52,109 nt of DNA from Escherichia coli. GTDB lineage: Bacteria > Pseudomonadota > Gammaproteobacteria > Enterobacterales > Enterobacteriaceae. Position numbers and translations under genes: made by a program. Below, one piece after another: positions 1-34,923 of the stretch (its first letter is position 1; the number at the start of each line of letters is the position of its first letter). The stretch is from the NCBI RefSeq assembly GCF_003334815.1, contig NZ_QOWO01000029.1; one strand, written 5' to 3'. The notes under the pieces are model-generated. The model saw only the letters and a list, made by a program, of their open reading frames with translations, did no database searches and was not told where the DNA came from.

Positions 1-75
1 CGCGAGGCATCGTCTTAACGAGGCACCGAGGCGTCGCATTCTTCAGATGGTTCAACCCTTAAGTTAGCGCTTATG
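1..75. mobile_element. Probable right terminus of an IS186 copy (IS4 family), truncated by the window edge
   Basis: Positions 49-75 read ggttcaacccttaagttagcgcttatg, the reverse complement of the IS186 terminal inverted repeat as I remember it (CATAAGCGCTAACTTAAGGGTTG...). An IS186 next to entD is the K-12 arrangement. Recalled, not aligned. Confidence 0.5.
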
Positions 76-185
76 GGAGTAATCCCCGCATATCCGGTTG
101 TCAGGTCAGGATGGTAAGGCACCTGCTTTACACTTTCGCCCGTGGTCAGTGATGGCTGCGGGCGAATCGTACCAGATGTTGTCAA

Positions 186-806
186 TTAATCGTGTTGGCA
201 CAGCGTTATGACTATCTTTTCTTTTATCTGCCAGTGCACAGCAAACATCTCATTCTCACGATGAATGATGACCTGCTGTTTATTCCAGCTAATTATCTGA
301 TAGTCCAGAAAACCTGCATCAGTTTGGATCTCACTTGCCTTAAATGCGCTCTCTTTGGCGGAAAATGCCAGTGTCAGCGCCAGAGAAAAGGCTAAACCGC
401 AGTCTGCGAGTCGCTCGTGTTCCGTTGGTGTAATAATGTTGTCTGTCAATTCTCTTGCGGTTTGTACAGAAAAAATTTCTTCTATATCAATGCCAATCGG
501 TTGACGAGATACCACGGCTAATGCCGTAGTCCCACAGTGGCTAATACTGCCGTATACCTCCGCAGGCCAGACAGGTTGGCGTAGCTCGCCGATTGCGGGC
601 ACACATTTATAGCCATATTCCCGCAAAGCATAAACAGCAGCGATCCGTCCGGCTAAATGCTCTGTTTTACGTTTACGTCCAGCGTGTTGCAGTTGTGCGT
701 AGTGCGGCAGCCAGAGTAAATCCTGCTCACAAAAATTCGCCGGATCGAACTCAACAAAATGCAGCGTATGTCCGGCAAAGGGGAGGGAGGTATGCGTAGT
801 TTTCAT
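186..806 (-). CDS. entD: Phosphopantetheinyl transferase for EntB/EntF (206 aa)
   Basis: The 256-aa track ORF contains MKTTHTSLPFAGHTLHF..., matching EntD as recalled. Start placed at the internal ATG at 806 to give 206 aa; the upstream in-frame extension is presumed noncoding. Confidence 0.88.
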   Translation of the reverse strand: MKTTHTSLPFAGHTLHFVEFDPANFCEQDLLWLPHYAQLQHAGRKRKTEHLAGRIAAVYALREYGYKCVPAIGELRQPVWPAEVYGSISHCGTTALAVVSRQPIGIDIEEIFSVQTARELTDNIITPTEHERLADCGLAFSLALTLAFSAKESAFKASEIQTDAGFLDYQIISWNKQQVIIHRENEMFAVHWQIKEKIVITLCQHD

Positions 807-15366: not shown

Positions 15367-15406
15367 AACCCTCACCCCAGCCCTCACCCTGGAAGGGAGA
15401 GGGGGC
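15367..15406. repeat. GC-rich small intergenic repeat, degenerate inverted copy B, in the fepB leader
   Basis: aaccctcaccccagccctcaccctggaagggagagggggc is partly complementary to copy A, so the pair could fold into a long stem in the fepB 5' UTR. Confidence 0.45.
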
Positions 15407-15562
15407 AGAACGGCGCAGGACATCACATTGCGCTTATGCGAATCCATCAATAATGCTTCTCATTTTCATTGTAACCACAACCAGATGCAACCCCGAGTTG
15501 CAGATTGCGTTACCTCAAGAGTTGACATAGTGCGCGTTTGCTTTTAGGTTAGCGACCGAAAA

Positions 15563-15585
15563 TATAAATGATAATCATTATTAAA
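15563..15585. promoter_or_regulatory. Fur box in the divergent fepB/entC promoter
   Basis: ataaatgataatcattatt is a near-perfect match to GATAATGATAATCATTATC, about 30 bp upstream of entC. Confidence 0.75.
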
Positions 15586-15611
15586 GCCTTTATCATTTTG
15601 TGGAGGATGAT

Positions 15612-16787
15612 ATGGATACGTCACTGGCTGAGGAAGTACAGCAGACCATGGCAACACTTGCGCCCAATCGCTTTTTCTTTATGTCGCCGTACCGCAGTTT
15701 TACGACGTCAGGATGTTTCGCCCGCTTCGATGAACCGGCTGTGAACGGGGATTCGCCCGACAGTCCCTTCCAGCAAAAACTCGCCGCGCTGTTTGCCGAT
15801 GCCAAAGCGCAGGGCATCAAAAATCCGGTGATGGTCGGGGCGATTCCCTTCGATCCACGTCAGCCTTCGTCGCTGTATATTCCTGAATCCTGGCAGTCGT
15901 TCTCCCGTCAGGAAAAACAAGCTTCCGCACGCCGTTTCACCCGCAGCCAGTCGCTGAATGTGGTGGAACGCCAGGCAATTCCGGAGCAAACCACGTTTGA
16001 ACAGATGGTTGCCCGCGCCGCCGCACTTACCGCCACGCCGCAGGTCGACAAAGTGGTGTTGTCACGGTTGATTGATATCACCACTGACGCCGCCATTGAT
16101 AGTGGCGTATTGCTGGAACGGTTGATTGCGCAAAACCCGGTTAGTTACAACTTCCATGTTCCGCTGGCTGATGGTGGCGTCCTGCTGGGGGCCAGCCCGG
16201 AACTGCTGCTACGTAAAGACGGCGAGCGTTTTAGCTCCATTCCGTTAGCCGGTTCCGCGCGTCGTCAGCCGGATGAAGTGCTCGATCGCGAAGCAGGTAA
16301 TCGTCTGCTGGCGTCAGAAAAAGATCGCCATGAACATGAACTGGTGACTCAGGCGATGAAAGAGGTACTGCGCGAACGCAGTAGTGAGTTACACGTTCCT
16401 TCTTCTCCACAGCTGATCACCACGCCGACGCTGTGGCATCTCGCAACTCCCTTTGAAGGTAAAGCGAATTCGCAAGAAAACGCACTGACTCTGGCCTGTC
16501 TGCTGCATCCGACCCCCGCGCTGAGCGGTTTCCCGCATCAGGCCGCGACCCAGGTTATTGCTGAACTGGAACCGTTCGACCGCGAACTGTTTGGCGGCAT
16601 TGTGGGTTGGTGTGACAGCGAAGGTAACGGCGAATGGGTGGTGACCATCCGCTGCGCGAAGCTGCGGGAAAATCAGGTGCGTCTGTTTGCCGGAGCGGGG
16701 ATTGTGCCTGCGTCGTCACCGTTGGGTGAGTGGCGCGAAACAGGCGTCAAACTTTCTACCATGTTGAACGTTTTTGGATTGCATTAA
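15612..16787 (+). CDS. entC: Isochorismate synthase (391 aa)
   Basis: Chorismate-binding enzyme family. Start placed at [11 protein letters not shown]. Confidence 0.92.
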
Positions 16788-34694: not shown

Positions 34695-34923
34695 TTTTAC
34701 TCCATGTCGTCGGTGCTGCGAGTGTCGCAGATAAACATACCCAAAAGAAAACCCTCACCGTCAGGCGGCGAGGGTTTAACTCACATGATGATACTGACTG
34801 TTGCTCACTCTTTGAAGTGATTTGCGTCACATTCAGGGAATTCCTCAATGCAGCGCATTATGTATAAATCTTAATCGCCTTGGTTTATGGAAGACGAATT
34901 AGCGTGTTTTGTAAATCAGATGA

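Follow-up and report, generated by a model that had tools for sequence, protein, structure and literature searches.

The stretch analysed here, referred to as the window, comprises 52,109 nt of Escherichia coli DNA (contig NZ_QOWO01000029.1). Its first 75 nt belong to an insertion sequence and the following 110 nt lead to the stop codon of entD. Comparison with loci from other genomes (L-numbers; L005 is MG1655), together with folding of a reconstituted hokE transcript, places the following features in this opening segment.

Positions 1 to 75, plus strand: right end of IS186, its last 75 nt, identical to the corresponding ends of MG1655 IS186A and IS186B.
Positions 53 to 75, minus strand: perfect terminal inverted repeat of IS186, measured at 23 bp, reading CATAAGCGCTAACTTAAGGGTTG on the minus strand.
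Positions 76 to 85, no strand assigned: right-hand copy of the 10-bp target-site duplication, GGAGTAATCC; the same 10 bp stand at the left IS end in L001 and L005.
Positions 76 to 89, plus strand: descending half of the hok 3'-UTR hairpin GCGGGGAGUAAUCCCCGC, the GGGG-N6-CCCC target of IS186, from the uninterrupted-site sequence and predicted in the reconstituted mRNA.
Positions 86 to 166, plus strand: orphaned tail of the hokE mRNA 3' UTR, contiguous with hokE in L002 and L003; homology of the hokE module ends at 166.
Positions 117 to 127, plus strand: fbi-like element (fbi, fold-back inhibitory) with the sequence AGGCACCUGCU, which pairs with the 5' end of the hokE mRNA, GGCGGGUGCCU, in the predicted fold.
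Positions 135 to 166, plus strand: terminal 14-bp stem-loop of the hokE transcript, present in the folds and corresponding to the hairpin with which R1 hok mRNA ends.
Positions 167 to 185, no strand assigned: 19-nt spacer from the end of the hok module to the entD stop, not hok-derived; it differs in L003 copy 1, L012 and L013.
Positions 186 to 806, minus strand: entD coding sequence (phosphopantetheinyl transferase), convergent with hokE, from the annotation of L001, L002 and L005 and the ORF list.

An IS186 right end at the border of the window

The match of positions 1-75 to the IS186 end is exact over its full length. It holds for both MG1655 copies, IS186B beside hokE and IS186A beside hokC, whose 1339-bp sequences are identical to each other, beginning with CATAAGCG and ending with CGCTTATG. 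An earlier note on this DNA, made from the sequence alone, had proposed that an IS186 end borders entD, and this match, together with the complete element found upstream in L001 and MG1655, bears the proposal out. The same note had located the terminal repeat at 49-75. An IS186 repeat is indeed present there in reverse complement, but the perfect repeat is confined to 53-75; positions 49-52 are internal to IS186, and the two ends of the element already diverge at that point. The 23-bp repeat occurs once in the window, with 0 mismatches, and none of 100 shuffled versions of the window contained a match even when up to 3 mismatches were allowed. We set the end of the element at position 75, 3 bp short of the MG1655 annotation, which extends IS186B to the equivalent of position 78; the difference arises from the palindromic ends of the target duplication (GGA...TCC).

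The IS186 transposase is encoded on the plus strand, as is hokE, and its gene is expected upstream of the window. In both L001 and MG1655 a complete 1339-bp IS186 with an IS186/IS421 transposase lies upstream of the junction, and hokE follows directly beyond it; the adjacency of IS186 and hokE in K-12 corresponds to IS186B of MG1655. Because hokE and the rest of the element lie outside the window, it is from these identical or near-identical genomes that we infer a complete IS186 upstream of position 1. Relative to IS186B (insL2, IS4 family, alias IS421; MG1655 608007-609351), the part visible here, which is the last 75 nt only, shows no difference from the right end, and the 23-bp inverted repeat, the 10-bp duplication and the GGGG(N6)CCCC target are all shared. 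A promoter scan of positions 1-1000 returned no outward IS promoter.

L001 is identical to the window over positions 1-400. MG1655 coordinate 609274 corresponds to window position 1, and the 727-nt overlap with MG1655 contains a single mismatch, at position 425 within entD, a T versus C difference that also separates the window from L001. By these alignments, the source of the window is a close relative of K-12 and not MG1655 itself.

The uninterrupted site and the origin of the 110-nt interval

L002 and L003 carry no IS186 at this position. In both, the hokE stop codon is followed by CCGTTGT, the hairpin GCGGGGAGTAATCCCCGC, and then the sequence of the window from position 86 onward, and GGAGTAATCC is present as a single copy. 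L002 carries IS150 in its hokE leader, and L003 was taken as the intact-locus reference. The hairpin GCGGGGAGUAAUCCCCGC thus starts 7 nt past the stop codon; in L001 and L005 the other copy of GGAGTAATCC is found beyond the opposite end of the IS, starting 11 nt and ending 21 nt after the hokE stop. Mutation-accumulation lines have established the IS186 target motif as 5'-GGGG(N6/N7)CCCC-3' (PMC5009759), and the hokE target site, GGGGAGTAATCCCC, conforms to it. The sole other GGGG(N6/7)CCCC in the 52-kb window, GGGGCTGAGTTCCCC at 43726-43740, is a potential IS186 target.

Since the sequence from position 76 onward directly continues hokE in these IS-free genomes, we assign positions 86-166 to the severed hokE 3' UTR. 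The distance of 110 nt given by the earlier note for the interval separating the IS end from the entD stop is confirmed as 76-185. Its suggestion that this interval might contain a disrupted hok remnant holds for the 3' part of hokE, at 76/86-166, and fails for 167-185, which are not hok-derived. The question was settled with other E. coli genomes, that is, with sequence outside the window. Homology to hok likewise ends at 166 in the more upstream of the two tandem hokE copies of L003 and in B2-type strains.

The surroundings of hokE vary between lineages. Two tandem hokE modules are present in some strains (the loci looked at were L003 2190-3095, L012 1834-2592 and L013 509-2614). In B2/ST131-type strains the hokE module is followed not by entD but by SDR oxidoreductase and ABC transporter genes, with the break in homology exactly at 166.

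Predicted folding of the hokE transcript

The pre-insertion locus was rebuilt in silico by removing IS186 and one copy of the duplication, and the hokE mRNA 5' end was set by homology with the R1 hok 5' end, not by mapping. In the minimum free energy fold of the resulting mRNA of ~406 nt, 11 pairs close the 5' end GGCGGGUGCCU onto positions 117-127 (AGGCACCUGCU), which occupy the position of fbi in R1 hok; the comparison of 76-185 with hok fbi elements that the earlier note had put forward therefore yields a counterpart. The same fold contains the hairpin that follows the stop codon, and its 3' end is the 14-bp stem-loop at 135-166. When folded alone, positions 130-170 reach -24.4 kcal/mol, and a T/C allelic change at 143 preserves the hairpin pair (U-G vs C-G). 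The energy of the tac/fbi duplex, -21.5 kcal/mol, was equalled by 20 of 2000 shuffles (1%) and by 22 of 1892 window tiles (1.2%). Taken alone, this complementarity is only moderately unusual, and we therefore base the case on the continuity with hokE, the conserved position of the helix, and its covariation.

For the comparison we folded both hokE copies of strain M9 (NZ_CP010196), whose locus is uninterrupted, reconstituted hokC, hokB, an R1-type plasmid hok, and a Klebsiella plasmid hok. L010 and L011 served as the plasmid references; L008 and L009 were left out on account of IS elements just upstream, the hok leader of L008 being interrupted by IS150 and the upstream sequence of L009 lacking the usual 5' leader. 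A common layout is kept in every folded homologue: a GC hairpin after the stop codon, a helix closing the 5' end onto the 3' region, a short linker, and a terminal hairpin, with the closing helix always 35-43 nt from the 3' end. The helix also covaries between plasmid and chromosomal hok. Of its seven core pairs, position 3 is C-G in the former and U-A in the latter, and position 6 is U-A and C-G, respectively, so that both partners have changed each time. The sample is small, with 6 loci of 4 sequence types.

The reconstituted hokE mRNA closely resembles that of R1 hok (parB), in which the tac/fbi stem keeps the full-length mRNA inactive and stable until 3' processing (PMC9841398). In both, a GC hairpin lies just 3' of the stop codon, the 5' end pairs with a segment 35-45 nt from the 3' end, and a short linker (CUUUAUA in R1, CUUUACA in hokE) leads to a 14-bp terminal hairpin. 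The core helix is GGUGCCU/AGGCACC in hokE and GGCGCUU/AAGCGCC in R1, and the hokE helix has 4 extra pairs at the extreme 5' end. In contrast to R1 hok, the entD-side hairpin of hokE has no U-run, with no U-tract following 135-166 on either strand, and the fbi element in the window is physically detached from its gene.

As it stands beside entD, the orphan tail is probably inert DNA, for which we found no promoter, terminator, Rfam match or credible ORF. The terminator scan of positions 1-1000 returned no canonical terminator for hokE or entD, and an Rfam search of positions 1-1200 at permissive thresholds gave only noise within 1-185 (mir-2290, E = 8.1). Small ORFs of 56, 37 and 31 aa overlap positions 1-211; the 56-aa ORF spans the boundary between IS and target and was taken as spurious.

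Elsewhere in the window, REP/BIME-type palindromic repeats occupy positions 840-960, between entD and fepA. Rfam reports ES036 there just above its gathering score and naRNA4 below threshold, most likely because those families were built on REP sequence. Other Rfam matches at gathering score are the rnk leader (34740-34848, minus strand), a cspA-type thermoregulator (47834-48276, plus strand), and STnc70 (29434-29527, plus strand). No tRNA genes were found anywhere in the window.

Recurrent insertions at hok loci

We surveyed 5426 complete E. coli genomes for these junctions, with the following counts.

hokE tail beside entD, IS186 in the orientation of the window: 1647 of 5426.
hokE tail beside entD, IS186 in the opposite orientation: 225 of 5426.
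hokC site, IS186 in the K-12 orientation: 681 of 5426.

Together, IS186 insertions at hokE and hokC are present in roughly one in three of the complete E. coli genomes. The opposite orientation is exemplified by L013 and L014 (positions 1185-2523 in each), where IS186 occupies the same hokE hairpin at the equivalent of the 75/76 junction. L013 is a B2 strain with a different right-hand neighbour, and in L014 the two copies of the duplication differ by one base (GGAGTAATCC vs GGAGCAATCC). As IS186 is found in both orientations at hokE, at least two insertions must have occurred there, in keeping with the palindromic nature of the target.

IS186A at hokC (MG1655 15387-16731; L004 1391-2729) offers a close parallel. 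The identical element lies 22 nt past the hokC stop in a GGGG-N6-CCCC hairpin, GGGGATCACTCCCC, and is accompanied by a 10-bp duplication, GGATCACTCC. It differs from the hokE case in the hok paralogue affected, in its neighbours, dnaJ and nhaA, and in its orientation relative to hok, which in K-12 is the opposite. At hokC, some genomes give the match pattern expected of the opposite IS186 orientation, in which query coverage ends at the 23-bp repeat. Strain 720632, which equals the window over positions 1-400, shows this pattern at hokC, its coverage ending at the repeat. If the pattern does reflect the opposite orientation, hokC too would have received IS186 at least twice.

The coincidence of the hok post-stop hairpin with the IS186 motif explains these repeated insertions and is the only mildly fresh point to emerge here. 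An additional and rather doubtful idea is that the hok loci of the chromosome trap IS186 time and again, and that selection might favour these insertions because they uncouple the toxin mRNA from its stabilising fbi lock. The evidence for a trap consists of recurrence and motif match; selection and phenotype lie outside it.

A second element, IS150, interrupts the 5' leader of three hok loci. These are hokE (L002, ~825-2246, with a 3-bp duplication CCC after ATCAACCC), hokA of K-12 (L006, from 3134 onward, 33 nt before the ATG), and the R1-type plasmid hok of pC0044 (L008, 1-316). To judge by these three insertions, hok leaders appear to be a recurrent target of IS150.

Discussion

We conclude, with high confidence, that the window opens in a copy of IS186 inserted into the 3'-UTR hairpin of hokE and that the severed tail of hokE adjoins entD. 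On this reading IS186, a member of the IS4 family, recognised and entered the GC-rich hairpin GCGGGGAGUAAUCCCCGC of hokE, a type I toxin gene, duplicating the 10 bp GGAGTAATCC. The insertion split the transcription unit, leaving the hokE coding sequence and the antisense gene sokE upstream of the window and stranding the last ~80 nt of the unit, with the fbi element at 117-127 and the stem-loop at 135-166, beside entD. In an uninterrupted hok mRNA, fbi pairs with the 5' end (tac) and locks the full-length message in a stable, untranslatable fold. The hokE transcript of the window strain would be unable to form this tac/fbi lock or to stop at the hairpin that normally closes it. The junction between IS186B and hokE in K-12-type E. 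coli is already known and is not new biologically: the hokE/sokE locus of K-12 is the same locus with the same insertion, and positions 86-166 are its entD-side remnant.

Two other readings concern the sequence at the junction itself. The 76-185 interval could be viewed as the 3' flank or terminator of entD, with the adjacency of hokE incidental and the 135-166 hairpin serving the convergent, minus-strand entD transcript, in which it would also form, 19 nt beyond the entD stop. This is very improbable. The 76-166 block travels with hokE and not with entD: it terminates the first tandem hokE copy in L003, and quite different genes come after it in L012 and L013. The terminator scan and the search for a U-tract, empty on both strands, argue in the same direction. 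Because the block moves with hokE, we rule out an entD terminator as the main reading of the hairpin, which may nonetheless play a secondary part in entD 3'-end formation. Alternatively, positions 1-75 might be a solitary IS186 end left by a deletion instead of the edge of a complete element, given that the sequence upstream of position 1 is not visible in the window and that IS-mediated deletions from hokE are on record in E. coli B evolution lines ('hokE_large', PMC4557228). The junction is nevertheless common to 1647 genomes, a complete 1339-bp element occupies it in L001, MG1655 (L005), L013 and L014, and L001 is the locus with which the window agrees throughout 1-400; we regard a solitary fragment as extremely unlikely.

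The consequence of the IS186 insertion for hokE is a separate matter. Because both the tac/fbi lock and the transcript's own 3' hairpin would be lost, we consider the hokE locus inactivated, extrapolating from the R1 hok model and from the literature. PMC12214031 lists hokA, hokC and hokE as inactivated by insertion elements, and for hokE/sokE of K-12 this goes back to Pedersen & Gerdes (1999, Mol Microbiol 32:1090) as cited there. Chromosomal hokA, hokB and hokC have been reported to be without post-segregational killing; hokE is not among the loci named in that report. It is conceivable that hokE is still functional, for instance if its transcripts gain a replacement 3' end from the left end of IS186, in which case the severed tail would be uninformative about activity. 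MG1655 carries annotated, intact copies of both hokE and sokE, over-expressed HokE is toxic (bioRxiv 10.1101/2025.08.07.668861), and hokE mRNA is still detected in K-12, where it is edited (40% A-to-I; PMC12214031). Against this, the 5' tac has no partner without 117-127, the pairing is conserved with covariation in every homologue examined, and the literature treats the locus as inactivated (PMC12214031), so that a functional hokE seems improbable to us. The detection of its mRNA in K-12 does mean that inactivated differs from silent.

For annotation, our analysis suggests that the 110 bp before entD are best described as a detached hokE regulatory tail and not as anonymous spacer, and that the edge of the window lies inside a mobile element. 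An IS186 copy beside the ent/fep cluster is also a potential substrate for IS-mediated deletions. In the E. coli B evolution lines the 'hokE_large' deletion, which may or may not be linked to IS186, took out the fep/ent operons (PMC4557228). The junction represents a clean case of a strict IS186 target preference meeting a conserved RNA hairpin, and of the decay of a chromosomal type I toxin locus.
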